Assembly (NCBI GenBank): GCA_964418725.1
Contig: CAYQMZ010000004.1
Location: 1-33,631, forward strand
DNA: 33,631 nucleotides
Direction of reading: 5' to 3'
DNA from: an uncultured Pirellulaceae bacterium
GTDB taxonomy: Bacteria; Planctomycetota; Planctomycetia; Pirellulales; Pirellulaceae
The notes under the pieces were generated by a model. The model did no database searches and was not told the origin of the DNA. It worked only from the letters and a program-made list of their open reading frames with translations. The position numbers were made by a program, and so were the translations under genes. Shown here piece by piece: positions 5,801 through 33,631 of this stretch (within the stretch, counting starts at the first letter, position 1; every line of letters begins with the position of its first letter).

Positions 5801-8800
5801 TAGATGAGATTTGCGATCCCAACGTGGCTAGGTTGTCGATGGCGAAAACCGCGATCTCGACATCCTGATGATTGTTGTCCGACTGGTAGCCGGTGCTCAC
5901 GTAGTCCGTTGCCGAATCAACAACCAACGTGCCAAGCGAACTTCCATCGGCATCAAAGGCCTCCAGAACGTAGTCGTTGTTTCCGCCTCGTTCAGAAACC
6001 GCAATGAACCCTCCGGCTGTCGAATAGACGGGACTGGAATACGTCAACGTATAAGACTCATTTGTGAAGTCTCGGCCGTGCAACTGCTGAAAGTGATTCA
6101 AGTTGCGGCTTTGGAACGCATCGAGAACATCGGTTTCATAGTTATCTGGGTCTGTGTTGAAATCACTTACGACCGACAGGCCGTCCTGTTCGATGATCCG
6201 TCCGCCACCGACAGAGAAACCAGAAACGAATCCATCTGGAATGATCAGATCTTCATATCGACCATCGAGGGCAGGATTCGAACTTCCAACAATCTCGATA
6301 GCGTTAAGAATGTGGTCTCCGCCGCGTTCATCTGGGTCAGCAGATTCGATATCAAATGACAGTTGGTCCTCCGAGAAAGCTCCCGAAACGCCGCTTGCCA
6401 CCGCGTCAGGCAGTTGACCGGGCTCGCGACGGTCGATGATTCCGTCGTTGTCGTCATCAATATCAACGGCGTCGAGTACGCCATCGCCATCGGTATCGAG
6501 TGAGGGACCAACGGGATCATGAATGATGCCATTTGCGACGCCATCAGCGTCACCCACACCTCCATCTGTGATTTGATAAGTCACGGTCGTTACGATCTGC
6601 TCGCCGTTGGAGGCCGTACCGTACGTTACTTCGTTCGCAAAACTATAGAACTGCGTTCCATCGAACTTACGGAAGTCCCACTGAGCCGTGTTGTAATCTT
6701 GATCGTAAAAGACAGTAACGGTCGTTGAGCCACCTGGGGCATCACAACGAACTCGGAAATCGGTCAACCCCAAGAAGTAGTCGGCACCGGGATCCTGCAC
6801 CGGCAGATCGTCTTCATGGAAATGGCCTGCTTCAGCAATCAGCTCGCAATTGTCCGCACTCTGAATTTGAATCGTAACGTACTCGCCGGTCACTGGGTTA
6901 GGAATCGAACTCACGTCAGACTGTGTCGAATCCTTAATTCCGTCGTTGTTCCCGTCACCTCCGTTCGGGCCCTCGTCTTCGACGGCGTCACTGACTCCAT
7001 CAAGGTCGGTATCGTGGACGAGCACGTCGACTGTCGCCACGGCTGGTACGGACACATTGCTTCCCGCGTCGGTAAGAGTGAACGCTACGGTTCGCTCACC
7101 TGGGGTCGGCAACAGCAAAGAGTTGCTGTATTGAACACCTCGAATCAATGTCTCCAAGTCGTCTTGGTCCATGGGCTCTGGTTCGCCGCCCACTTGAGAA
7201 TTGTTGACGATTGCGAATAGCCCAGTTGCCCCGTCGTAGGTGACATCGAACAGGGTGTTGCCGACGGTCAGTTGCCTTGGATCAATGACATCCACGGCAA
7301 GATTGAATTCGATCCCGTCGATCCGCAGGAATTCGTAACCATTATCGAGCAGCAACGCTGGGTTCACGCCAATCGTCAGTTGAGCTAGGTCGTTTTCGCC
7401 AAAGGCGGCTATGTCTGTGAGCGAAACATTGGCGACGTGCACAGGAGGGCCGTTATCAGCGAAAGTTGCACTATACCCACGCTCGTTGTCGCTGGATGAA
7501 GCTGCCGAGTTAAGGTCAATAACCGGGGCATCATCGACGGCGACGACTGAAATGGTGGCTACCGCTGAGGGACCGACTCCACCAATCTCGTTCGTTCCAG
7601 TGAACGTAAATGTTCGATCCGGAGTTTCCGTGGCGAACGGTGACTTGTTTTCATAAGCCAATGCTCGAATCAACAGGTCGAGGTCGGCGTCAGGAATCTG
7701 TGTGCTAACACTCGAGTTGTTGGTAAACGTAAACGATACTCCGTCATACTCAATCTTGATCAGCGATCCACCGAAGGCTGCAACACGCGGAGACGCCAAC
7801 GCTTGCGACAAGTCGATCGCGTGGTCGCTGAATCCATCCAGAACGTGCAGGAATTCGTGTCCAGAATCCGCGACGTTTGCGACATCCAAAGTCAATTGGA
7901 AAGTCCCGTCGGTGATATCCAACAAGTCGCCATCGACATCAGCAAGTCGAACGGGAGAATCGCCATCGGTGTAGGTTGCAGAAAAGTCGCGATCAGCATC
8001 CGCGAAACTCGCCGTACTGTTCAGGTCAATAACCGGAACGGGTTGGTCTTCGTCTCGATAGTCCAGATCGGTCGACGGCGGATTCGCATTGCTACCATCA
8101 GCATCCGTGTCTGCGTCAAGGTCGGGTAGTGCAAAGTCTCCAGCCGAATTCAGGTTCTCGTCGTTGACGTCAAATCCGTCTTCAACATCGCTGCCTTCGT
8201 AGTCATCCAGCAACCCGTCCTGATCGGTGTCGGTTGTCGAAGTCGCAGTAGCTATTCCAGATTCTTCCTGATCGGAATTCCCATCGGCGTCACTGTCGTC
8301 ATCCAGATAGTCGGCGATCGAATCCCCCCCCGTCAATGCACCATCGGTGTTAACCGGAGTGAGGCCAGTTCCTATGTGCGTATATGATCCGTCTGCATTG
8401 CTGCCAACGCCAGCTTGCGTATCGTCGTAACGATCATCCAAACCATCACGATTCACGTCAACGAACTCTGCAGTGCCGCCAATTCCGCTTGGAGCAATGT
8501 AGTTGGCGGTTGACTGAGCTTCGACATTGTCGGTGATCCCATCGTTGTCGCTGTCGATGTCCAAATGATTGAAAAACCCGTCACCATCACTGTCGGGAAG
8601 GACGTTGGCTCGCAATTGGCCGCCTGCAACTGCCCCAACATTTCCATCCAAGTATTCGTAACTGATTTTCACAATGCCACCGCCCGAGACGACATTTTCC
8701 AACGCGGTATCTGCAAGGACGACGATGCCGCCAGACTGATGCTGTTCAGACCGAATCGCGTTGAAGCCGCCGTCGGTGGTCACAACGAATTCGGCAATCG

Positions 8801-11800
8801 TGGACCCGGAAGGAGTCCAGGAAGGATCAAGCTGAATCCCCAAGTTGGACATTACCGTGCCGTCAGCGAGTTCCACGGTAAAATTACGAATCACGCTGTC
8901 GTGATATGTTGGATTTCCGGAGTTACTGACGAGTCCATTGATCTCAATCTCAATGTCGAACAACGGAATGCTTGAAGTGAACTCCAAGACGCCAGATCTG
9001 TTTTCAGTGAACGAGTATCTTCCGTTAGTCCACATAGAGTGTGTGTTTCCACCGGAAAATGTCGCCGTGATTTCGGCCCGTACCGAGTCATTGCCCAAGT
9101 ACCCATTGAAGGTGGATACAGACGCCTGATTCGTGTCGGTATTCAAATTGGATCGCGGTGTTTCAACTGCGTCCAGAATGCCGTCATTGTCATCGTCAAT
9201 GTCAAATTCGTTGGCGACATTGTCGCCGTCAGAATCGAGAGCTTCGCGGAAGTCGCTATCGATACCTAGGACGATGGCATTGGTACCGGCGGCGTTTAGA
9301 TCATCGTCGCTGTCGGGCAATGCGATTGAAGTTGCATCGCGATTTTCATCGTTGACAACGAATCCGTCATTGGTGTTGCCCCCTTCGAGTTCGTCAGCGA
9401 GGCCGTCTCCATCGACGTCGTTCATGAAGTCATCGGACGTGTCGCCAGCAGTGCCGTTGTCATTCAAGTCAACGCGACCATCGTTGTTGGCATCGGCTGA
9501 ACCGTAACCTGCTTCGACGATATCAAATAAACCGTCGTTGTCGCTGTCGAGGTCAAGGTAGTCGGCAACGCCATCAGCCGCATTCGTTGACGCATCGGAA
9601 TCAACAGGCGAAAGTCCTTTGCCCATATGCGTGTACGAACCATCTGCGTTTTGTCCAACTCCAGCCATGGAGTCGTCATAGCGATCATCCAAACCATCTC
9701 GGTTCGCGTCAGTAAACGCGGCTGTGCCTCCCAAACCGCTCGGCGCGATGTAGTTTGCGGTCGACTGGGCTTCAACGTTATCAGTGATGCCATCGTTGTC
9801 GCTGTCTAAGTCTTTCGCGTTGTGGACGCCATCGCCGTCGGAGTCGAGATTTGCAATTACGCTCTGTTGGTCAGAGAAAGAACCAGTCACTGTGATTTCG
9901 CCAGGATCATTCGTGCCGGCAAAGAAGTTTTCGGTAATCGTTAGCCCGCCATAATTCGGTGCGACGGCGATCCCGTGGACATATGAAATCCCGTTTGCGT
10001 TCGCACCTGTGAAATCAAAAGCCGTTGCAGCGAGATTTCCGCCGCCAACGCCCAATTGGACGGTGGCAATCAGCAAGTCGGAAGCAATGGGAGTGAACTG
10101 CTTTCGCGTACCAGTGCTGTTGTTCAGTTGATAGAACCAATTGGTGCCGTCAAAATCGGCGGAGACAAACTTTCGGCTGCCAGTTTCTCCAAATCTCGCA
10201 TCAATTCCGTCCGCAACGTATAGAAGGAAATGCTCACCGGTGTCGCCATCCTGGTAATCAACACCTTGGACAAAAGTCGTCGATGTGTCTGGGGCAATCC
10301 AGACAATAGTAGATTCATCAACATCCAGAATGCCGTCGTTGTCGTCGTCGATGTCGACTAAGTCGTGAACATTGTCGCCATCAGTATCGAGGGCTTCTCG
10401 AAAGTCGCTGTCGATATCCAAGGCGATCGCATTGGTCCCGGCGGCGTTTAGGTCACCATCACTGTCGGGTAGCGAGATTGAAGTTGCATCTCGGTTTTCG
10501 TCGTTGACATCAAAGCCATCATTCAAGCTTGTGCCTTCGAGTTCATCGGCCAAACCGTCGGCATCGGCGTCGTTCATGAAGTCATCTGAGATACCCGCCG
10601 TGCCGTTGTCGTTGAATTCAACGCGGCCATCGTTGTTGGCATCTTCCGGAGCATAGCCCGCCTCGACAATGTCAAACGTGCCGTCGTCGTCGCTGTCGAG
10701 ATCAAGGTGATCAGACGTGCCGTCGCCGTCCGTATCGACTGGCGTTAGCCCCGTTCCAGCATGCGTGTATGATCCATCTGCGTTCTGACCGACAGCCGCC
10801 TGCGTATCATCATAGTGATCGTCCAAACCATTGCGGTTATTGTCCTCGATAGTTGCTGCGACTCCGCTTGGCGCAATGTAATGTGCCGTCGATTGAGCTT
10901 CCACATTGTCTGTAATGCCATCGTTGTCGCTGTCGATATCAAGTCGATCGACAAATCCATCACGATCTGTGTCGCGATCTCCTCTTACCTCAAGCCTGAC
11001 CAGGCCGCTATTGGGAAAGCTCGATGCAATTATCTCCCACGATACGGATTTGATCTTTTTGTCAGGATCTAGCCCCAGCAGTTGAACTCGTCCATAAGCT
11101 TGGTTGTTACTGTTGGATGGCTCCGGGTTGTCGATAGCGATGGTCGAACCGACGACGGTTCGTTCAAGCAACAAGAATCCGTTCTGCCCGCCAGCCACAG
11201 CAGGATCGTCAATGATTTGCAGGTCCACATTGGTGACAATGGTCCCGTCGTCGTAAGCAACCGTGAAGTTGCCAAGCACAGTCTGCCTGTTGATGCTGCG
11301 GAACTGTAGATCAACTTGCTCGACGGCTTCGTCGAATGTAAACGTTCGAGTGGTCCCAACAGTTGCGTTCTCGCTGAAGCTCCATTCCGAGGATGAACTA
11401 CCTATGCCGCTGCCACTGAATACCACTCGATTGATTGTGTCATCTAAAACGAATTCACCTTCGTTTCCGGAAGTCGGACTAACCGCAACAACATCCATTT
11501 CATCGGTATCTCGAATGCCATCGTTGTCATCATCAACATCGACTTCGTCGCGGACGTTGTCGCCATCTGTGTCCAGTGCTTCGCGGAAGTCGCTGTCGAC
11601 GTCTAGTGGCAATGCGTTAGTGCCTTCAGAGTTCAAGTCTCCGTCTGAATCTGCCAATGCGATCGAAGTTGTATTGCGGTTTTCGTCATTGACGTCAAAG
11701 CCATCGTTCGCATTGGTGCCTTCGTAGTCATCCAGCAAACCGTCCTGATCGCTGTCATCGTTGGATGTCGCTGCCGCCATTCCTGATTCGGCTTGGTCGC

Positions 11801-22597: not shown

Positions 22598-23386
22598 ATG
22601 GATATCGTGAAGGACTCGCTAATGAAGAAGACAAGGATTTCGACCCTCGTATGGGTAATGGCGTTCGTCAGTGTTGCCAACTCAGCGACTATTGATTTTG
22701 AGCCTACCGCGACGGATACATTTGAAGACAACATCGTGTTTCCCGCGGGAACGGTTGGTGGTGTTACCTACCGGTTCGGCGTGGATGTAGACGCCGATGG
22801 CCTGATCGACTTTCCGGCAAGGCTTGAGCAGCGCGGTAGCGACTCGATCAACGCGTATACACTTGGAAGCGTTGAAGACGACGCAGACTTGGACACCAGC
22901 GTGTCAGGCGGGGAGTGGCTGTTACGTCGCCCTAAGATTACCGAAGAAGGCGCGACGAATAACCTAGATGTAGCCATGGTCTGGGAGTTAGCCACAAAAT
23001 CGCTCCAGCCGCTTTCATCAGTCGGAGGTCAAATCTGGGACGTAGACCTGGGCGAAGAGTTCCTCATCACATTGACGCGACCAAGCGGTGACCTGATTCA
23101 GTCACTGACACTTCCGGTTGGTACCGCCGAAGGTCGTGGTTCCGCAACGAGCTTTCAGTTCGATGAACTCAATGACGCGACTTCCGTGAAACTGAGTGTT
23201 CGCCTACTGAGTGCAGGTCAGAATGCTGGCGGATATGGAATTGACAATGTCACTTTCACGCTGGTACCTGAACCGGCCTGGCCGTCGTATGTCTTCTTGC
23301 TTTTTACCAGTGCCATGTTGCACTGCGGACGTGTGAGGGTACGTAATTATCGTCATATGACTTTCGCAGCAAAAACTCCTCAGTGA
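22598..23386 (+). CDS. Secreted PEP-CTERM-type sorting-signal protein with uncharacterised beta-sandwich-like ectodomain
   Basis: The N-terminus has a signal-peptide shape, MKKTRISTLVWVMAFVSVANSA|T, so the likely true start is ATG 22622. The C-terminus is NVTFTLVPEP-AWPSYVFLLFTSAMLHCG-RVRVRN: a VPEP motif (23264-23275), then a ~17-aa hydrophobic helix, then a basic cluster. That is the PEP-CTERM architecture. Confidence 0.7.
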   Translation: MDIVKDSLMKKTRISTLVWVMAFVSVANSATIDFEPTATDTFEDNIVFPAGTVGGVTYRFGVDVDADGLIDFPARLEQRGSDSINAYTLGSVEDDADLDTSVSGGEWLLRRPKITEEGATNNLDVAMVWELATKSLQPLSSVGGQIWDVDLGEEFLITLTRPSGDLIQSLTLPVGTAEGRGSATSFQFDELNDATSVKLSVRLLSAGQNAGGYGIDNVTFTLVPEPAWPSYVFLLFTSAMLHCGRVRVRNYRHMTFAAKTPQ

Positions 23387-24575
23387 TTGAAACTAGTCGA
23401 ACGACTTTGCGGCAAGCATTGAAGAACGGGATCACGGGAATGATCAGGCAGATGATTAGATCTTCATAGAAGTGTTGACTGTGTGCCAGTATCAATAAGG
23501 ATTGGAATAGGTGGAGTACAAACACGATGAGATACGTCGCAGTGGTCAGCCACAGTAGATCTTGCGGTGTTTGCAGCACTAGGGATATCCAATAAAGGAA
23601 AATCGAGTAGGTGCAAAAGATCTGAAAGAACCAGCAGTTCATCAAGCACAAGAGATTACTAACGCGAAAATTGCCGTACCAGAAGAATGCCAAGTCGACG
23701 TGCTTGCGGCATTTGTAACGGACGGCGCCACGATTCCATCGGCGACGTTGTTTGAGGAAGCTCAGAAGCGTCGCGGGCACGTTTGTGAAGCCGTAAGCAT
23801 GCGGTTCGAACGCAACTCTATAGCCGGCTTTTCTCAGGCGTAGTGTGAGATCCCCATCTTCACCTGGCCCCACGTCCCAACCGCCAATGGAACGCACCGC
23901 TGCGCTTCGAAATGCACTAAAGCCACCGGAAGCAACAACCAACATGTCAAACTTGTCGGCAAGTTGCCGTCCCATGAAAATGCTGTTGGCATACTCGAAT
24001 GCTTGGCACCAAGTTACGATGCTTTCAAACGGATTCCGAACACGAAGCGTAGCCGAAACGGCGCCAACCCATCGATTTCGAAATGGCTGGACGATGCGAT
24101 AGATCGCGTCGCTACGCAAGTGAGAATCTGTATCCGCGATTACGAGTACGTCGGCTGACGTGTAGTTTAGAGCTAGATTTAGCGAAGACGATTTGCCGCC
24201 ACGTTGCGGGCGACTGAGTGACCTAATAAAGCCGTATTGTTCCTGCAGTTTTTCGAGGATCTTCGCCGTACGATCAGTGGAAGCATCGTTGACAACGATA
24301 ATCTCTAGTTTGGGATAGGTCGCGACAATAGACTCCACCGTTGCCCGAATCGTATCCTCCTCGTTGTAGGCAGAAAGCAACACCGCAACGGTCGGCAAGA
24401 ACGGCTCAGTGGATTCTGCTCGATAACGCCAAACGCCCGACAAGCTCTCCCAGAAGACACAAACAAATAGCTTCAAGGCTGTGTATCGAGCACCATCGAT
24501 GAGCAACGTTGCTCCAAACAGTGCCCAAAGTCGCTCCGGATTAAGGCTGAACAGCCAATGCAAAACTTCGGACAT
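23304..24575 (-). CDS. Membrane-embedded processive family-2 glycosyltransferase (PgaC/IcaA/NodC/BcsA/Alg8-like polysaccharide synthase)
   Basis: This is a 423-aa ORF with an ATG start. It has an N-terminal TM helix and GT-A motifs: VVNDASTDRT, IADTDSHL, GGFSAFR, PGEDGDLTLRLRKAGYRV and FLKQRRRWNRG (the Q(Q/R)xRW processivity motif). About 4 C-terminal TM helices follow. Size and topology match PgaC/NodC-type synthases; the sugar polymer is unknown. Confidence 0.85.
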   Translation of the reverse strand: MSEVLHWLFSLNPERLWALFGATLLIDGARYTALKLFVCVFWESLSGVWRYRAESTEPFLPTVAVLLSAYNEEDTIRATVESIVATYPKLEIIVVNDASTDRTAKILEKLQEQYGFIRSLSRPQRGGKSSSLNLALNYTSADVLVIADTDSHLRSDAIYRIVQPFRNRWVGAVSATLRVRNPFESIVTWCQAFEYANSIFMGRQLADKFDMLVVASGGFSAFRSAAVRSIGGWDVGPGEDGDLTLRLRKAGYRVAFEPHAYGFTNVPATLLSFLKQRRRWNRGAVRYKCRKHVDLAFFWYGNFRVSNLLCLMNCWFFQIFCTYSIFLYWISLVLQTPQDLLWLTTATYLIVFVLHLFQSLLILAHSQHFYEDLIICLIIPVIPFFNACRKVVRLVSITEEFLLRKSYDDNYVPSHVRSATWHW

Positions 24576-25436: not shown

Positions 25437-27071
25437 TCAATCCCGCGTAGCTGGTCGTGTCTTGAAAGACCAGTGGCTGGACGTCGTGGCCCATAGGCTT
25501 GAAAATTCGCTGTCACGAATCGCCGAAGTCCACGTGCGTTTCATCACAACCGTTGAGGACAGAGGTAACTTGGCCAGCCCTTCTGCGGCGGAAGCGTCAG
25601 GCCTGAGTCGAATGAGTGCGAGTTTTCTTCCACTCCAAAAGAAGTTCTGCAAATTCGCCGGAGGGTGTTGAAGCTGCGGATCGACGTTGACCACTTGGCA
25701 AACGCATCTCTGCCCGGTCGACGAAATGAACACGTTTGCGTCTTGATTCTCGCGGATGCGATTCAGCTCCTTGCTGGACAAGTACAAGTCGATCGTTAGC
25801 GAATCATCTTCGAGCAGAGTTACCACGGGGGAAGTCTCATCGACTGCTTCGCCGACGAACTCGTAGCGACGTACGACGACACCACTCACGGGAGCACGAA
25901 CTTGGCATCTGCTTAGTCGATCCCCGATTGTCGCCAAATCACTGTCGATGGCGGAGATTTTCGCGTCGTATACTGCCGCGATTTGGGTGTCAGACTCAGT
26001 AGACACCGCGATCTGCGATCGCTCGCGCAGCGCAACCAACCCCTTTAGCTCTTGGGCCAAACTGTCACGATAGAATCGTTCTCTGATTACCGTGCGTTTG
26101 AGATCTTGTAGCGGCGCAGCGTCGGTTCGAGCGAGCGATGCTTGCATTTTGCCTTTTTCTTCGAGCACCGACAGCTTGGCCTGCTGTTGAATCAGGTCAC
26201 TCCAAGCCGAGTTGAACTCAGCCTGATAACGAAGCTGCTCCGCGCTACGGGTAGTTCGCCTTGCTTCAGTCTCTGCAAGCTTGAATGCCCTTTCCGCACA
26301 CACGATCGCACGCTGTTTCGTAAGCCGCTCACTCTCAGCCAACAACTCATCGCTACGAATGCTGAATAACAGATCACCCTGCTTCACTCGACTTCCAACA
26401 GCAACGCAAAGTCCCTGCATTGTGCCTTTGATCGGCGGCTGGACATCAATTAGTCGCCCAGTAGTCTCGCCATAGCCCACGTAGCGAAGCCTAGCGTCCC
26501 AAACCGAGTAGAAGAAAATCCCGATCGCTATTAGCAGGGCCAAGCTAACGAGACGCTGTGAAAACCGCCGCGTGGCCACTCCTTTGTCTCGCGGGACGTC
26601 GTAGCCAGTCGCTCTTTGCTTGGTTACCACACCTGCCGATCTTGCTGCGTCGCGACTGACCTTCAAGTGTTTCTCTAGCAACTCGGCCGGCGCAACGGAC
26701 GCTCCCTCGAGGGGAATGACCTTGACGAATTCGCTTTGCAAACGCGGACGGTCGGTATCGGGGTTCTTCGCCACGATTAAGACCGGTGTCCCGGTATCTG
26801 CCGCGAGAAGTTCGACCTGTTCTAACAGGTTTTTCTCGATACGAAGCAGCAAGAAAACCGCCGCGTCGAACCTGCCCGTAGAAAGTTCAAACAAGGCAAC
26901 GTCCGGCGACGCGGCATAGTGGAACACCCAACCAGGACGTTCGGGCTCGGCGACTTCGCACCGAACCAATTCATCGCATACGATAACTCGCACCATCACT
27001 GTCTCGCCGAACTCTGAGGATTCGGGAAAGTGTACCCGCGCGAATACTCGGAGCTTGGCGTGCCACGACAA
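25437..27071 (-). CDS. Receiver-like (probably pseudo-receiver) domain :: TM helix :: HlyD-family membrane-fusion/periplasmic adaptor protein
   Basis: The track ORF is 544 aa and starts at TTG 27071. ATG 26996 (MVRVIVCDE...) is a likelier start and gives 519 aa. Residues 26-125 have a CheY-like beta/alpha pattern (VRVIVCDE, FDAAVFLLL, TPVLIVAKN, FVKVIPL). A TM helix, LVSLALLIAIGIFFYSVW, lies at about 26499-26552. The HlyD hallmarks follow: GRLIDVQPPIKGTMQGLCVAVGSRVKQGDLLFSI (lipoyl-like hairpin), about 170 aa of coiled-coil, then CQVRAPVSGVVVRRYEFVGEAVDETSPVVTL and a beta-barrel. Confidence 0.8.
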   Translation of the reverse strand: MSWHAKLRVFARVHFPESSEFGETVMVRVIVCDELVRCEVAEPERPGWVFHYAASPDVALFELSTGRFDAAVFLLLRIEKNLLEQVELLAADTGTPVLIVAKNPDTDRPRLQSEFVKVIPLEGASVAPAELLEKHLKVSRDAARSAGVVTKQRATGYDVPRDKGVATRRFSQRLVSLALLIAIGIFFYSVWDARLRYVGYGETTGRLIDVQPPIKGTMQGLCVAVGSRVKQGDLLFSIRSDELLAESERLTKQRAIVCAERAFKLAETEARRTTRSAEQLRYQAEFNSAWSDLIQQQAKLSVLEEKGKMQASLARTDAAPLQDLKRTVIRERFYRDSLAQELKGLVALRERSQIAVSTESDTQIAAVYDAKISAIDSDLATIGDRLSRCQVRAPVSGVVVRRYEFVGEAVDETSPVVTLLEDDSLTIDLYLSSKELNRIRENQDANVFISSTGQRCVCQVVNVDPQLQHPPANLQNFFWSGRKLALIRLRPDASAAEGLAKLPLSSTVVMKRTWTSAIRDSEFSSLWATTSSHWSFKTRPATRD

Positions 27072-27958: not shown

Positions 27959-29740
27959 CTACTTTTTGACTTGGAACGCAATGGATTGAATGTCTCCGTC
28001 GCACTCTTCTTCTACCCAGCGAATCAAGTCAACAAACGGTTCCGTATTACGCGTTCTAATTTTGTCGCCCCTCTCAACCAGCGACGACACTTGCCTGACA
28101 GCGGAACCCACCGATATCCATACTCCAGTAAGACTACTGTCGCCGGTCCACCCCGTGTCTGATGGTGGGTCGGCACTCCAACTATCCCATTCTTCAATCG
28201 GTTGCTGGCTGCGAACTAGGATAAATGCCTGCACGCCTTTGCCTTCGTTGAGACAAAAAAAGTAGTCTTTGTCTTCGGGAAACACGAACTTCTCAACCTT
28301 GCTGTCCGATTCAGCCAAGAACTGCAATGTCCCATTCGTATTCGCAGCAATTAGCGAACAGTATGTCGGAGTCAGAGACTGATGCGATATCGTTACGAAA
28401 TCTCCATCACGTACGACAAACTCCGAATGGCCAACAGAACCTAGCAACGAAAGGCTGTCGTCCGCGATATCTGCTCGATATGCGTTCAACGTTAGCCGTG
28501 AGGTAACGTTTGCCGAATCCGTGACCGTCCGCGCAGTCACTGACGGAACGAGTGTCGCCCAAACACCTGCCAAGACAGCCAAACCGGTCAACAGGCATCC
28601 AACTTTGGCTAGCAGTCCAACTCTAGTGGGCGTATAGATTAGCTTGCCCTCGTCGCAACTTTGATCGACGGGAAGATTTTCAATTGCACGTTGCTCATTC
28701 GCCCAACGCTCCAATGCGTCGCGGAAACTCTGTGCTGTTTGAAATCTGTGTTGCGGCTCTGCCTTGACTGCCTTCAGACATATTCGATCCAATTCTTCAT
28801 CCACCTCTGGCCGATAGTCACGGCATCTACGTGGTGGTTTTCGAATCGCGTCTGGAGACGAACCGTACGGTCTTGTACCGGTTAGCAGTTCGTAGAGCAT
28901 AACGCCCAATGAGAAGAGGTCGCATAGAAACAATGACTCTACAGGCGACTCACCAAAAAGCTCCGGCGCCATATAGCCAGGTGATCCCAAACCGTAGTGT
29001 GTGTCGTCAGTACGCGACGCCAAACCAAAGTCAACCAACAGCACACGGTCTTCTTCGAGCAGAACATTGCTCGGCTTCAGGTCGCGATGAGCTATTCCCC
29101 GCGAATGCAACTCGGCCACCGCATCTAGCACCTGCAACATGATGTCTACAGTACGTGCAGGCGACAGACTGGGCGGCGTGCGACAGTGTTTTTTCAATGC
29201 ATCGCCGTTGACTAATTGCATTGCCACGAAGGGAAACGGTCCTATTTCTCCCAGTCCATAGATGGCAACACAATTGCGATGATCAATACGTGATAGGACT
29301 TTGCCCTCGCGAATAACTTCGCCTTTTGGCGAAAATGGCACCTTGATCGCGACGCTCCGATTGAGCGACAACTGCTTTGCCTCGTATACGACTCCAGTTC
29401 CACCTCGCCCGATTTCACGAATGAAATGGAAGTCCCCGGATTTGGCCGGCAAGCTTCCCAGTTCATCGGAAACTGGGCAGTAGCACTCGACGAAGTTGGA
29501 AAGTGCGGCAGTGGTAACCTTGTCAATATTGTCCGATAGACTGGGGAACTCTTGCTTCAGCAAACGCGGGGCGTCGAATCGTCCTCTTTTGAACTCGTTT
29601 TCTGCATAGACACCGGCAAGTTCAACAAGCCAGTCGCGACTGACTTCCACGCCAAGCGAGTCAACGAATCTCGAAATTGATACTTCGTGATCCTCTTCCA
29701 ACACCTGCTCAAATTCGAGTAGTAAGTCGGCTAGTCTCAT
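27959..29740 (-). CDS. Transmembrane Hanks-type Ser/Thr protein kinase with C-terminal extracytoplasmic domain (DUF4384-like)
   Basis: This is a 593-aa ORF with an ATG start. Kinase motifs are IGRGGTGVVYEA (P-loop), VAIKV (catalytic Lys), HRDLKPSNVLL, LVDFGLA and GSPGYMAPE. A TM helix, VGLLAKVGCLLTGLAVLAGVWATLV, follows. The ~190-aa C-terminal domain contains VVRDGDFVTISHQS...YCSLIAANTNGTLQFL...FVFPED...GVQAFILVRSQQPI, which resembles DUF4384 as I remember it. Confidence 0.85.
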   Translation of the reverse strand: MRLADLLLEFEQVLEEDHEVSISRFVDSLGVEVSRDWLVELAGVYAENEFKRGRFDAPRLLKQEFPSLSDNIDKVTTAALSNFVECYCPVSDELGSLPAKSGDFHFIREIGRGGTGVVYEAKQLSLNRSVAIKVPFSPKGEVIREGKVLSRIDHRNCVAIYGLGEIGPFPFVAMQLVNGDALKKHCRTPPSLSPARTVDIMLQVLDAVAELHSRGIAHRDLKPSNVLLEEDRVLLVDFGLASRTDDTHYGLGSPGYMAPELFGESPVESLFLCDLFSLGVMLYELLTGTRPYGSSPDAIRKPPRRCRDYRPEVDEELDRICLKAVKAEPQHRFQTAQSFRDALERWANEQRAIENLPVDQSCDEGKLIYTPTRVGLLAKVGCLLTGLAVLAGVWATLVPSVTARTVTDSANVTSRLTLNAYRADIADDSLSLLGSVGHSEFVVRDGDFVTISHQSLTPTYCSLIAANTNGTLQFLAESDSKVEKFVFPEDKDYFFCLNEGKGVQAFILVRSQQPIEEWDSWSADPPSDTGWTGDSSLTGVWISVGSAVRQVSSLVERGDKIRTRNTEPFVDLIRWVEEECDGDIQSIAFQVKK

Positions 29741-30144: not shown

Positions 30145-30681
30145 ATGCAGAATTCGATTTCAGTATGCGGGTGGGAATTTATGCCACAAACAAACGGTTC
30201 GGCAGATTCAGTCTGCGACAAAAAAGTCGTCCTCATCGATGATGATGAAGTCATGATTGAAATCGTTACTCATCTACTTAACGAAGCTGGGTTCTCGAGG
30301 ATCCATAGCTTCATGAAGTCTACCGAAGCATTGGAAGAGCTCCGCTACCTGAAGCCCGACGTGATCATCACCGACATTCACATGCCTCACCTAAGCGGAA
30401 CGTTTCTTGCCAAATTGGTCAGCGACTTTCCGCAGCTAAATGCCGTGCCCTTATTGGCCATGACCGCTGACGACTCCCACGAAACGCGAGACTTGGCACA
30501 AAAGAACGGATTCTTCGATATCGTTTACAAGCCCATCAATGCCGGAACACTACTTGCAAAGGTCTGCACTGCGATAGCGATTGGAGATCACAGCAAGCGA
30601 GTTCGAGCCGAACTACGCACCTCAGCGGCAGCCGATACGTCAGTGCAGGAAGGCGTCGTTTTCGACCTCTTTCGCAGATAG
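30145..30681 (+). CDS. Stand-alone CheY-like response regulator (receiver domain only, canonical catalytic residues)
   Basis: The ORF is 178 aa, with an alternative ATG at 30181. Receiver residues are all present: VVLIDDDE (acidic pair), DVIITDIHMP (phospho-acceptor Asp), LLAMTAD (Thr) and VYKPI (Lys-Pro). A short C-terminal tail follows, with no DNA-binding domain. Confidence 0.85.
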   Translation: MQNSISVCGWEFMPQTNGSADSVCDKKVVLIDDDEVMIEIVTHLLNEAGFSRIHSFMKSTEALEELRYLKPDVIITDIHMPHLSGTFLAKLVSDFPQLNAVPLLAMTADDSHETRDLAQKNGFFDIVYKPINAGTLLAKVCTAIAIGDHSKRVRAELRTSAAADTSVQEGVVFDLFRR

Positions 30682-30771: not shown

Positions 30772-32259
30772 CTAAGGACGCGATCCCGGCGTCATATAAC
30801 AAAGGTGGTAGAGTTGAAAAAGGGAACTCTCGGCCCGCCCCCCTTGTCGCTTTAGATGTTCTTGAGCCGTCTCAGTCCTGACATTGCTGAAGCCCATATT
30901 CGATAGCCAGGCGGTTGGGTCTCGCACGCCAAAAACAAACTCTTCGCCGAGCCGTTCCATGGCGGAGAAAAAGGCATTTGCCTCAGGGTACGCGGAACTT
31001 CGATCCAAGACCGCCTGATCGACGAAGTCACACCAGACAATCGATTCGGGGTGCCCCAAAACTTCTCGCAGTGATGACAGAATGCTCTGATTGTCCTGCT
31101 CGTCGAAATACATGGAGCAACCTTCGTAGACGGCAATCGTCTTGGCCGAAGGAACGAATCCATTTTTCAGTAGCTGTTCACCGATATTTTGACGGGTGAA
31201 GTCTGCTGGAATGCAGTAGCGGTTAGCCCCATGCAATCGTCCAGATTCGACTACCCGGTCGCGCTCCGACAACATCTCAGGCAGATCGAGCTCGAAGATA
31301 CGAATACCGGGTTCCAAGCGAAGTCGATACGGACGCATGTCTAGTCCGGCGCCAACGAGCACCAGCTGCTCAAGGTCGCCATGACATCGAATCACCTGAT
31401 CGACGCTCTCGGTGCGAGCCCTCACAAACTGACCGAGCTGAGGAAGTTTCTTACTCAGCTCTTGCGCCAACAGGCGACCGTGTGGCCCCGCAGCCAAATC
31501 ATCAAAACACACGTTGGGCGGATCGACTCGATGCCTTCGACCATCACCTCGTTGAAGCGAGTCAGTCGTTCGAGATTCCGGATTCGCGTACGTCGCGCTG
31601 CGATACTCCCGAGACAATCGTGCTCGTATGCCTGCAATCATGCGAGCTGACGCCTTCAGTTTTTGTGCTGCATGAGTCGACAACCCACCTTCCCCCGCCT
31701 CCTGCAAAGATCGTGTGGACTGTAGAAAGTACCTTCCTTCACCGGAGGCTACCTGTTCTCCATTGGAGAAAAAGTTGATCTCTAGCGTTACGAGGCAGCG
31801 TTTTCCCCGTTCGTATCGCTGACGAATCTTTGAGATCAAATCGGAAGGGACTCTGCACTTGCCATATAAATGTCCAGTGCTTGGCTTCAAGTATCTCATT
31901 TTCAACCCAACGAGCCACAACGATGCTGAAGTCTCGGGGTGACACGGATGGATTCCAGCTAAAGGAATGCCGGTCAATACAGTGGTTAGCGCCATTCCGC
32001 CGGTGTAGTCGGCAGACAACGCGATGATGGCGGCTTGGTGAGTTCCATGCTGATTTGTCGTTTCGTGATTCAAGGGCAACAAGGTCTCAGCGTAGCCAAA
32101 TTCCGTCGAGACGATCTTCCAGTTCGTCGCCCTGAGAGCGTGCACCGAGTTGCGTGCCAATCGCGTCATGTAGTCCGGGTGAATCCGACTTTCCCAATCA
32201 GACTTGAGTTCCTGTTGCCGGGTGAACGTTAGCGCTGCATTTGCGTCAGGGCGTATCAT
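30772..32259 (-). CDS. Fusion protein: N-terminal hotdog-fold (PaaI/4HBT/YiiD_C-like thioesterase-type) domain + C-terminal class I SAM-dependent O-methyltransferase of the LCMT / mycobacterial Omt-like family
   Basis: This is a 495-aa ORF with an ATG start at 32259. The N-terminal ~190 aa reads ...NQHGTHQAAIIALSADYTGGMAL...LWLVGLKMRYLKPSTGHLYGKCRV...CLVTLEINFFSNGEQVASGEGRYFL, a hotdog pattern. The C-terminal ~230 aa has LVLVGAGLDMRPYRL (the GAGLDTR motif I of the LCMT-like family), IFELDLPEM and IAVYEGCSMYF. Confidence 0.65.
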   Translation of the reverse strand: MIRPDANAALTFTRQQELKSDWESRIHPDYMTRLARNSVHALRATNWKIVSTEFGYAETLLPLNHETTNQHGTHQAAIIALSADYTGGMALTTVLTGIPLAGIHPCHPETSASLWLVGLKMRYLKPSTGHLYGKCRVPSDLISKIRQRYERGKRCLVTLEINFFSNGEQVASGEGRYFLQSTRSLQEAGEGGLSTHAAQKLKASARMIAGIRARLSREYRSATYANPESRTTDSLQRGDGRRHRVDPPNVCFDDLAAGPHGRLLAQELSKKLPQLGQFVRARTESVDQVIRCHGDLEQLVLVGAGLDMRPYRLRLEPGIRIFELDLPEMLSERDRVVESGRLHGANRYCIPADFTRQNIGEQLLKNGFVPSAKTIAVYEGCSMYFDEQDNQSILSSLREVLGHPESIVWCDFVDQAVLDRSSAYPEANAFFSAMERLGEEFVFGVRDPTAWLSNMGFSNVRTETAQEHLKRQGGRAESSLFQLYHLCYMTPGSRP

Positions 32260-32606: not shown

Positions 32607-33631
32607 TCAGATGCCGCTGTCGGGCTGGAGATTTCTCGACACGACACGCGTAATCTCAGCCGCCAAGTACTCCCCCATCGACTCATCACGAGATCGAATC
32701 TTCGCAACTCCCATTTCTCCTGGTAAGAGATCGAATTCAGCTTTCGCCCGTGGAGCCAACGCGACTTCGACGTGGGGGCGAAGGAACTTCAAACCCTCGA
32801 TGCTCTCTTGAGTTCTAGACAGGTCGTCGGACGCAAATCGCTTCTCACCCTGCGCTGAATCCATCACAGGCAATGGCCCACTGTTGCTGGCGGCGAATGC
32901 CGGGATCTGAATTATCTGTGATGCTCTAGGTGGAATCTGGCTAACGCTACATTCCAGCAACTTACCGACTTGCCCCCAAATCCGAGCCGTGACTTTTGGC
33001 TGTTTCGCTGATCGAAGCCATTTCGCCTCGTCTTGGTCGACAAGGCCAATCAGTTTCGGACGCTCGCTGGAACCGACTTCCATGATCTCCATGCCAGGTT
33101 GAGCGAACATCCCAAGCTTTGAGTCCAGCTCAAATGTCGAAACTGTTCCTGCGATCGGTGCGCGGATGACCAACCGATCAATCAGATCGCCAAGCTCTTT
33201 CACTCGATCGGCAATAACGTCTATTCGATCCAACTGCTTCTGCAATTCAGCAATTTCTCCGTTCGCTTCAAGGCTCCGAGCTTTCAATTGCTCCGATTCC
33301 AGTTGAAGCTTTGTTGCGACGTGCTCTTGCACCAATTCTGTGTTGCGAAGAACAGCCAAAGGTTGATGCTGACCTACCTGCTGGCCGGTGCCCACAAATA
33401 TGCGGTCTACGAATCCATTCGCTTCAGCTCGTACAACTACCAAATCGTCGTATTTGACGATGACAGGAAACGTTATGGCGGCTGGGGCCGGCACAAAGAG
33501 GAGAATTCCCCAGACGCACGCCAACAATAGGGTTGTGGTCAAGCAGAATCGAAGTCTATTCACACCGGACGTTTTGTTTCCACCAACCAGGTACACGCAC
33601 AATCGGCATAGCGGTACGACCAACCAGAACA
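32607..33631 (-). CDS. HlyD-family / RND-type periplasmic adaptor (membrane fusion protein), N-terminus uncertain and possibly beyond the right edge
   Basis: The track ORF starts at TTG 33623, but the frame stays open to the window end. Features are a TM helix (LLLACVWGILLFVPAPAAI), VVVRAEANGFVDRIFVGTGQQVGQHQPLAVLRN (lipoyl-like), a coiled-coil (LQLESEQLKARSLEANGEIAELQKQLDRIDVIADRVKEL), then VIRAPIAGTVSTFELDSKLGMFAQPGMEIMEVG. Confidence 0.7.
   Translation of the reverse strand, partial: FWLVVPLCRLCVYLVGGNKTSGVNRLRFCLTTTLLLACVWGILLFVPAPAAITFPVIVKYDDLVVVRAEANGFVDRIFVGTGQQVGQHQPLAVLRNTELVQEHVATKLQLESEQLKARSLEANGEIAELQKQLDRIDVIADRVKELGDLIDRLVIRAPIAGTVSTFELDSKLGMFAQPGMEIMEVGSSERPKLIGLVDQDEAKWLRSAKQPKVTARIWGQVGKLLECSVSQIPPRASQIIQIPAFAASNSGPLPVMDSAQGEKRFASDDLSRTQESIEGLKFLRPHVEVALAPRAKAEFDLLPGEMGVAKIRSRDESMGEYLAAEITRVVSRNLQPDSGI

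Follow-up and report, generated by a model that had tools for sequence, protein, structure and literature searches.

We analysed a 33,631-nt stretch of contig CAYQMZ010000004.1 from an uncultured Pirellulaceae bacterium, referred to here as the window. The minus strand of the window encodes a cassette in which the open reading frame (ORF) at 25437-27071, the target of this analysis, is followed by genes for a Cys-rich TackOD1 protein and a processive GT2 glycosyltransferase (Table 1). A first-pass annotation of the bare sequence had described this ORF as a cytoplasmic receiver-like module joined by a transmembrane (TM) helix to a HlyD-type membrane-fusion protein (MFP). The ORF is real, encodes 544 aa, and contains all four peptides on which that description rested: VRVIVCDE (residues 27-34), FDAAVFLLL (68-76), TPVLIVAKN (95-103) and FVKVIPL (115-121). 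The target encodes the adaptor (membrane-fusion) subunit of a synthase-dependent exopolysaccharide module. Its N-terminal domain is probably a divergent receiver (REC) domain that has lost its phosphorylation site.

Table 1 Features of the target ORF, its neighbours in the window and related loci
Feature	Position	Strand	Evidence
Whole ORF, 544 aa: receiver-like domain, TM helix and HlyD-type MFP	25437..27071	minus
Putative receiver-like (pseudo-receiver) domain, residues 26-147	26631..26996	minus	hhalign and hidden Markov model (HMM) tests, similarity to the L044 REC, coding signal
Single TM helix, residues 174-191 (LVSLALLIAIGIFFYSVW)	26499..26552	minus	hydrophobic 18-mer
Periplasmic MFP body: lipoyl/barrel-sandwich, long helical hairpin, beta-barrel	25440..26498	minus	Pfam, NCBIfam, 25-27% identity to cassette MFPs
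LRVFAR motif, residues 7-12 of the target	27036..27053	minus	by-eye likeness to family MFP tails
LLLR, L74-R77, beta3 end, expected site of the phospho-acceptor Asp	26841..26852	minus	MAFFT and profile alignments
A101, conserved Thr/Ser87 column	26769..26771	minus	alignments
Degenerate PilZ (residues 1 to ~105) and Cys-rich TackOD1 (123-247), 283 aa	24575..25426	minus	Pfam, PilZ HMM
Processive GT2, 423 aa, QRRRW motif, synthase of the module	23304..24575	minus	Pfam, NCBIfam, PDB
HisKA-only protein, 244 aa	27107..27841	minus	Pfam, KdpD alignment
Ser/Thr protein kinase with C-terminal extension	27959..29740	minus	Pfam Pkinase, 141.6 bits
Canonical stand-alone receiver: DDD, Asp, Thr and Lys-Pro present	30145..30681	plus, divergent
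PilZ-containing TackOD1 genes between MFP and GT2	L028-L048, e.g. L033 9557-10504, L029 4540-6717

Pfam recognizes MFP domains only in the target: HlyD_3 at residues 391-468 (49.9 bits, cut-off 22.2) and HlyD_D23 at residues 206-274 (40.5 bits, cut-off 30). The NCBIfam models matched by the MFP body (RND_mfp, EmrA and HlyD subfamilies) describe generic periplasmic adaptors, and all score below their cut-offs. With family profiles matched and a single N-terminal membrane anchor, the protein belongs to the HlyD/MFP family. The anchor is the one hydrophobic segment in the protein and is preceded on its N-terminal side by RRFSQR. Because basic residues flank the TM helix N-terminally, the positive-inside rule predicts an N-in topology that would place the first ~170 residues in the cytoplasm and the MFP body in the periplasm. 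The proposed order of cytoplasmic module, TM helix and MFP, beside a processive GT2, thus holds.

The target shares its gene neighborhood with a large family of loci. The order MFP / X-TackOD1 / (GGDEF) / GT2 is shared by L001, L003 and L004, by 43 of 44 genome loci and by nine metagenome loci. We fetched 52 cassette loci from contigs of metagenome-assembled genomes (MAGs) and metagenomes, nearly all of them labelled Planctomycetota. The window genes match cassette members at E-values of ~1e-31 (MFP), ~1e-30 (TackOD1) and ~1e-110 (GT2), with the same order in more than 40 loci, and the target MFP is 19-27% identical to all of its relatives. The GT2 is best matched in NCBIfam by PgaC/IcaA (156 bits against a cut-off of 422), and its PDB matches include hyaluronan, chitin and cellulose synthases. 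This three-gene module of MFP, sensor-TackOD1 and processive GT2 is apparently undescribed so far.

Two types of cassette can be told apart. Loci of type A carry the labels Planctomycetaceae, Fuerstiella or Planctomyces and have the order MFP / REC-TackOD1 / GGDEF / GT2 in three gene-called loci (L001, L003 and L004), with the GGDEF gene directly 3' of the TackOD1 gene. An alignment of 25 REC-TackOD1 proteins of this type (A4; set drawn from L001 and L003-L027, proteins P0004-P0029) has a near-invariant Arg in the Asp57 column (VLIRM), Val or Ala in the Thr87 column and Asp in the Lys109 column (LIDPF); this receiver is a conserved, Arg-substituted pseudo-receiver. Type B, to which the window belongs, has the order MFP / PilZ-TackOD1 / GT2 and is labelled mostly Pirellulaceae or Pirellulales, along with Mariniblastus, Phycisphaeraceae and Gemmataceae. 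Pfam PilZ scores above its cut-off in the TackOD1 proteins of L033, L029 and L032, the latter two of which have a REC-REC-PilZ-TackOD1 architecture. The PilZ of the family is carried by the TackOD1 subunit, not by the MFP.

The usual family MFP possesses a short cytoplasmic tail rich in Pro, Ser and Ala with a small motif, R-x-V-G-F-R or, in type A, A-F-R-F; it was seen near the N-terminus in the MFP tails of L029-L048. The LRVFAR of the target may correspond to R-x-V-G-F-R, a weak, by-eye likeness, and is translated only if the TTG start is used. In a related MFP from locus L044, REVGAR (residues 8-13) likewise sits right ahead of a REC-like insert. This hints at a domain inserted between an N-terminal basic/aromatic motif and the TM helix.

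In the window's lineage, this usually short tail would carry a receiver-like domain of ~120 aa. We compared the N-terminal domain with a broader, re-aligned profile of 38 receivers from related planctomycete loci, using hhalign at a permissive local-alignment setting. The match scores 26.8 (P=2e-4, Prob 46%) over 88 columns, from beta1 to alpha4. None of 720 shuffles and none of 700 real-sequence decoy windows reached this score, and the top decoy (25.8) is itself a REC-like N-terminus, from L046. The match held up when the profile was varied: leaving out L044, dropping every TackOD1-fused receiver, or restricting the set to 13 mostly canonical receivers (CheY, RR468, RR02 and the window's own REC among them) gave scores of 24.2-25.2 (P=7e-4 to 1e-3) over 96-98 columns, which is the whole domain, and 0 of 200 shuffles equalled them in each case. 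Across the custom REC profiles the Prob values range from 22 to 46%, which is suggestive and below any curated standard. A HMMER REC model gives the target 5.3 bits, a value reached by 3 of 2000 shuffles and 5 of 1600 decoys (empirical p ~0.002-0.003). We favor the interpretation that residues ~26-147 form a divergent CheY-like receiver in which the acceptor Asp and the Thr, and probably also the Lys, are missing, and hold this to be fairly probable.

The second line of evidence comes from L044 (contig CAVZLD010000009.1, an uncultured Planctomycetaceae MAG), which encodes an MFP homologous to the target. Residues 25-118 of this MFP match Pfam Response_reg (PF00072; E=1.1e-4, 22.7 bits, gathering score 30.2), and a local REC model matches the domain at E=2e-14. 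The REC is followed by a Pro-rich linker, a TM helix and the MFP. The L044 receiver also lacks the acceptor Asp (DVIVVSH) and keeps the Thr, and its TackOD1 partner has a degenerate PilZ, as in the window. The target and L044 domains align over nearly their full length with z=4.4 under BLOSUM45 (3 of 1000 shuffles), and with a z of only 2.1 under BLOSUM62. Among the 52 fetched cassette loci, a folded-looking domain on the MFP occurs in L044 and in this window only. The L044 MFP gene (7945-9579) is frameshifted in the assembly, being broken near 8763 and continuing in another frame from 8836. Its GT2 is split and lies on the opposite strand, and the cassette lacks HisKA or Ser/Thr kinase neighbors.

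The catalytic residues expected of a receiver appear to be substituted in the target. The Asp57 column falls on L74 in the MAFFT alignment, or on R77 in the HMM and hhalign profile alignments; the latter insert three residues into beta3 and delete the beta3-alpha3 loop. An Asp is absent from the acceptor site in every alignment, and the LLLRIEK stretch contains none. A101 occupies the Thr87 column in every alignment (MAFFT, hhalign). By eye, the Lys109 column holds I119; the computed alignments have a gap there. Pairing I119-P120 with Lys109-Pro110 is reasonable by eye and was reproduced by no program. Of the triad that the first-pass annotation had read as substituted, the acceptor and Thr positions thus stand, and the Lys-Pro position remains a by-eye assignment. 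A normal Asp/Thr/Lys triad, which would have made the domain an ordinary receiver, was not found. Since the acceptor site lacks an Asp in all of these alignments, "pseudo-receiver" is the best description, and the predicted domain, if a receiver, is a pseudo-receiver. At beta1, hhalign pairs C32-D33 with CheY Asp12-Asp13 (D33 with Asp13), whereas MAFFT takes residues 7-21 as beta1 and places H14-F15 at the acidic pair.

Several results weigh against a receiver. Pfam has no match on the target N-terminus even at E<=10, so that the curated PF00072 threshold is not reached, and phmmer against the PDB matched no REC or other solved structure. An exhaustive phmmer search of 1.84 billion representative proteins detected no homologue of the domain; the lone match, a repeat protein (P0003), is spurious, a summed chance match. 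Early REC tests were weak, with Prob values of 1.9% against a 5-sequence profile and 0.7% against a cassette pseudo-REC profile, and p-values of 0.03 and 0.3 for the early HMMs. About seven REC tests were made and the best are quoted above, which puts a fair corrected significance near 0.01. The alignments of beta1 and beta5 are unstable. The window MFP is not specifically closest to that of L044, and at its level of identity to all relatives a sister-lineage relation is not demonstrable. In a low-confidence AlphaFold model (pLDDT 50), residues 26-75 form five beta strands and no helices, and residues 17-42 weakly match the beta-barrel of the MFP family's own HMM. The earlier call of a receiver-like N-terminus therefore finds nothing in Pfam, PDB or phmmer searches and draws its support from the hhalign and HMMER comparisons with their shuffles and decoys.

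AlphaFold was run without an alignment because the N-terminal domain has no detectable homologues, and the single-sequence models reached a pLDDT of 38 for the whole protein and 50 for the domain alone. Foldseek on these models returned unrelated nucleases at E>0.03 and nothing meaningful. Word-indexed searches with the target recovered MFP cores only and no relatives of the N-terminal domain.

These results leave some room for a different reading, in which the N-terminal ~150 aa are a lineage-specific orphan domain and the receiver pattern is the generic hydrophobic periodicity of alpha/beta proteins. We consider this unlikely, although it is the strongest of the alternatives. Such a domain might be beta-rich and have arisen partly by duplication of a piece of the MFP beta-barrel. 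The complete absence of homologues and of Pfam or PDB matches would fit, as would the five consecutive AlphaFold strands, the match of residues 17-42 to the MFP-family HMM, and BLAST alignments of residues 6-46 to the beta-barrel region that repeat over many family MFPs. However, the MFP-fragment signal covers 26 residues only and the strands come from a model of pLDDT 50, whereas the full-domain hhalign matches to canonical REC profiles top all shuffles and decoys, and a real REC occupies the same position in L044. The segment concerned, ESSEFGETVMVRVIVCDELVRCEVAE (26944-27023, residues 17-42), scores 3.9 bits against the MFP-family HMM, a value reached by 1 of 1000 shuffles and 9 of 1492 decoys. 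This match could reflect either chance or a duplicated fragment.

The extension could also be untranslated, with a start near the TM helix, or be a functionless decaying remnant, which we regard as improbable. The tails of the relatives are short and of low complexity, a frameshift breaks the one other REC::MFP gene (L044), and no ATG occurs between residue 26 and the TM helix, yet GTG or TTG starts are possible there. The listed start of the target is a TTG (27071), and an in-frame ATG lies at residue 26, just ahead of VRVIVCDE. Against non-translation, residues 26-172 read in frame have a log-likelihood of 0.158 per codon, compared with -0.36 and -0.10 in the other frames, and the in-frame value equals the level of the window's confirmed genes; for codons 1-25 the codon statistics are uninformative. 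The open frame is unbroken up to 36 nt from the stop codon of the upstream gene, and a coherent, domain-length match to the REC profiles has been kept.

Least probable is a divergent Alg44-type PilZ that would make the target an ordinary PilZ-MFP c-di-GMP receptor: RVFARVHFP (residues 8-16) shares the RxxxR pattern and six of nine residues with RQFARVKLP of Alg44 (4RT0), the strands-then-helix AlphaFold model would fit a PilZ barrel and the Alg44 architecture is a precedent, but Pfam PilZ has no match on the target, no DxSxxG lies at a distance that would work (DELVRC being degenerate, and ELSTGR too far off at 50 residues), and the family PilZ already resides on another subunit. We rejected this reading, as the cassette PilZ HMM scores the target nil while detecting both controls, Alg44 (6 of 1000 shuffles) and the N-terminus of the window TackOD1 protein (0 of 1000).

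The TackOD1 partner of the target is encoded 10 nt downstream and matches TackOD1 (PF18551) with 81.5 bits. A type-B PilZ HMM gives its N-terminus 8.1 bits (0 of 1000 shuffles), and the motifs that bind c-di-GMP are lost, with RxxxR replaced by QxxxQ and DxSxxG by DRFSRA. There is no GGDEF gene in the window cassette, where the TackOD1 and GT2 genes abut at 24575. An intact c-di-GMP input, in the form of PilZ motifs on TackOD1 or an adjacent GGDEF gene, is thus missing from this cassette. Together with the probable pseudo-receiver on the MFP, this suggests that c-di-GMP control of the synthase has been replaced by another signal.

Candidate sources of such a signal lie upstream. The HisKA gene is on the same strand, 36 nt from the target, and its product retains an intact H-box (HDLRNPL). 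The Asn of the N-box (ATP-lid) is replaced in an alignment with KdpD, and no G1 or G2 boxes were found by eye. The HisKA-only protein is probably a pseudo-kinase or a phosphotransfer/phosphatase scaffold, judging from its sequence. It has no BLAST match (E<=1e-5) in any other fetched locus, and adjacency is the one ground for its functional coupling, or that of the Ser/Thr kinase, to the target; both points count against a relay through these proteins.

From the parallel with Alg44/Alg8 and BgsB/BgsA/TolC, we propose that the target links the GT2 in the inner membrane to an exit in the outer membrane. The pseudo-receiver would not be phosphorylatable on Asp and may instead act as a docking or allosteric module. 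By way of the TM helix, it could inform the MFP-GT2 complex of the state of the HisKA-only pseudo-kinase, the Ser/Thr kinase and the canonical REC. Possible contact partners are the DHp helices of the HisKA pseudo-kinase, the PilZ-TackOD1 protein or the GT2; alternatively, the domain may be phosphorylated on Ser/Thr. Signaling by contact or Ser/Thr phosphorylation is plausible because the HisKA-only protein and the Ser/Thr kinase are adjacent, and would stand in for the lost c-di-GMP input. For the account as a whole, a module adaptor whose pseudo-receiver tail relays signals from its neighbors, we see the chances as about evenly balanced. We speculate further, and more tentatively, that the zinc-ribbon TackOD1 protein is the signal-receiving subunit of a widespread planctomycete synthase, working through PilZ or through an Arg-for-Asp pseudo-receiver with a GGDEF cyclase. 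In the window, c-di-GMP sensing would have been abandoned and a phosphorylation-dead receiver on the MFP would be read by a pseudo-histidine-kinase and/or a Ser/Thr kinase. If this is true, a polysaccharide synthase would have been rewired in nature from second-messenger to protein-kinase control.

Synthase-dependent polysaccharide secretion (alginate, cellulose, mixed-linkage glucan, poly-N-acetylglucosamine) is a textbook target of c-di-GMP. The Pseudomonas aeruginosa alginate co-polymerase/synthase pair Alg44/Alg8 resembles the target and its GT2 in having a cytoplasmic regulatory domain, one TM helix, a periplasmic MFP domain and a processive GT2 partner. Post-translational control of polymerization is a further shared trait with the proposed system. 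The cytoplasmic domain of Alg44 is a c-di-GMP-binding PilZ (4RT0), whereas the cassette PilZ model does not score the target; the window GT2 is PgaC/NodC-like and not Alg8; and the PilZ-TackOD1 third subunit has no counterpart in alginate systems. No alginate accessory genes occur among the window neighbors scanned. The target does not group with Alg44 itself: it has an RxxxR-like string at residues 8-12 only, no usable DxSxxG, and no Alg8 or alginate operon. The first-pass annotation had proposed an Alg44-type architecture with a receiver in place of PilZ, and this does not survive. The PilZ of the family sits on the neighboring TackOD1 protein, where it is degenerate in the window too, and the cytoplasmic tail of most MFPs in the family is short and disordered. 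The target system is an Alg44 analogue, not an Alg44-type protein with a domain swap.

Further parallels are the BgsB/BgsA/TolC system for mixed-linkage beta-glucan in Sinorhizobium meliloti and the cyanobacterial tripartite cellulose system. As at the target, a HlyD-type MFP gene lies beside a GT2 gene. These MFPs are proposed to bridge to an outer-membrane channel (PMC13438883). Both systems are c-di-GMP-controlled, and BgsA has its c-di-GMP site at the synthase C-terminus (PMC5567048). The excerpts compared report neither a TackOD1 partner nor a receiver for BgsB.

TackOD1 has been known from REC-TackOD1 response regulators that are archaeal, mainly thaumarchaeal, and its function was called "obscure" (Galperin et al. 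2018, PMC5847659). The same Cys-rich domain forms the partner of the target, and the REC-TackOD1 architecture also occurs in the window's relatives. In contrast to the archaeal proteins, TackOD1 here belongs to a bacterial GT2 and MFP cassette and is fused to PilZ or a pseudo-receiver. Literature searches found TackOD1 named in one paper only and returned no account of the MFP / TackOD1 / GT2 cassette. The MFP-GT2 gene context places TackOD1 as a regulatory subunit of a polysaccharide synthase, and the cassette, recurring across many planctomycete MAGs, provides its first functional context.

The N-terminal domain of KaiA, FrzS and the plant pseudo-response regulators have a CheY-like fold without a phospho-acceptor Asp and work through protein-protein contacts. 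The target resembles them in the missing Asp, its own fold being a prediction from sequence comparison. To our knowledge, none of these pseudo-receivers is fused to an MFP or tied to a polysaccharide synthase.

The literature searches found no REC::MFP fusion, in line with the first-pass annotation, which knew of no characterized one. Among the loci surveyed here, a single additional case of the architecture came to light, the L044 MFP from a cassette of the same type. Pfam can detect its REC (E=1e-4), and the Thr is kept, whereas the target shows neither feature. Beyond the 52 cassette loci, a word-indexed search, two metagenome scans and a first genome scan added no further REC::MFP. If the pseudo-receiver reading is correct, this would be the first case found of a two-component-type domain fused directly to an MFP. 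A processive GT2 with an MFP co-polymerase under post-translational signaling is known; the domain arrangement is new. Within the family, the sensing domain shifts in both subunit and kind: PilZ, a true REC, an Arg-substituted pseudo-REC and a REC-like domain on the MFP all occur. The family thus offers a natural series for studying how a synthase-adaptor complex comes to be fitted with regulatory inputs.

A 2.8-kb metagenome scaffold (L002; ENA NAPP22-1_SAMN15346755_METAG-scaffold_26972) is ~99% identical to the window at the protein level from the C-terminal 302 aa of the target through the GT2. These 302 aa are its entire overlap with the target, and the N-terminal domain lies outside it. 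The GT2 of this scaffold is broken into two ORFs, through either an assembly error or pseudogenization.

The window encodes several other proteins around the cassette. A 262-aa ORF on the plus strand (22598-23386) overlaps the 3' end of the GT2 gene on the opposite strand, has no Pfam match and is probably not a gene. A thioesterase of the YiiD_C type fused to an LCM-family methyltransferase is encoded at 30772-32259 (minus). We saw no gene for a TolC-like protein in the window. Immediately downstream of the GT2, the minus strand carries an open frame of more than 7448 aa (3-22346) that continues past the window's left edge. DUF4347, cadherin-like/Big_9 domains and no fewer than 21 RTX nonapeptide stretches were identified in its first 2500 aa. 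The giant frame looks like an RTX-type adhesin and may be expressed together with the polysaccharide module. A second HlyD-type MFP (32607-33623, minus), at the window's right edge, might serve the type I secretion of this giant RTX protein.

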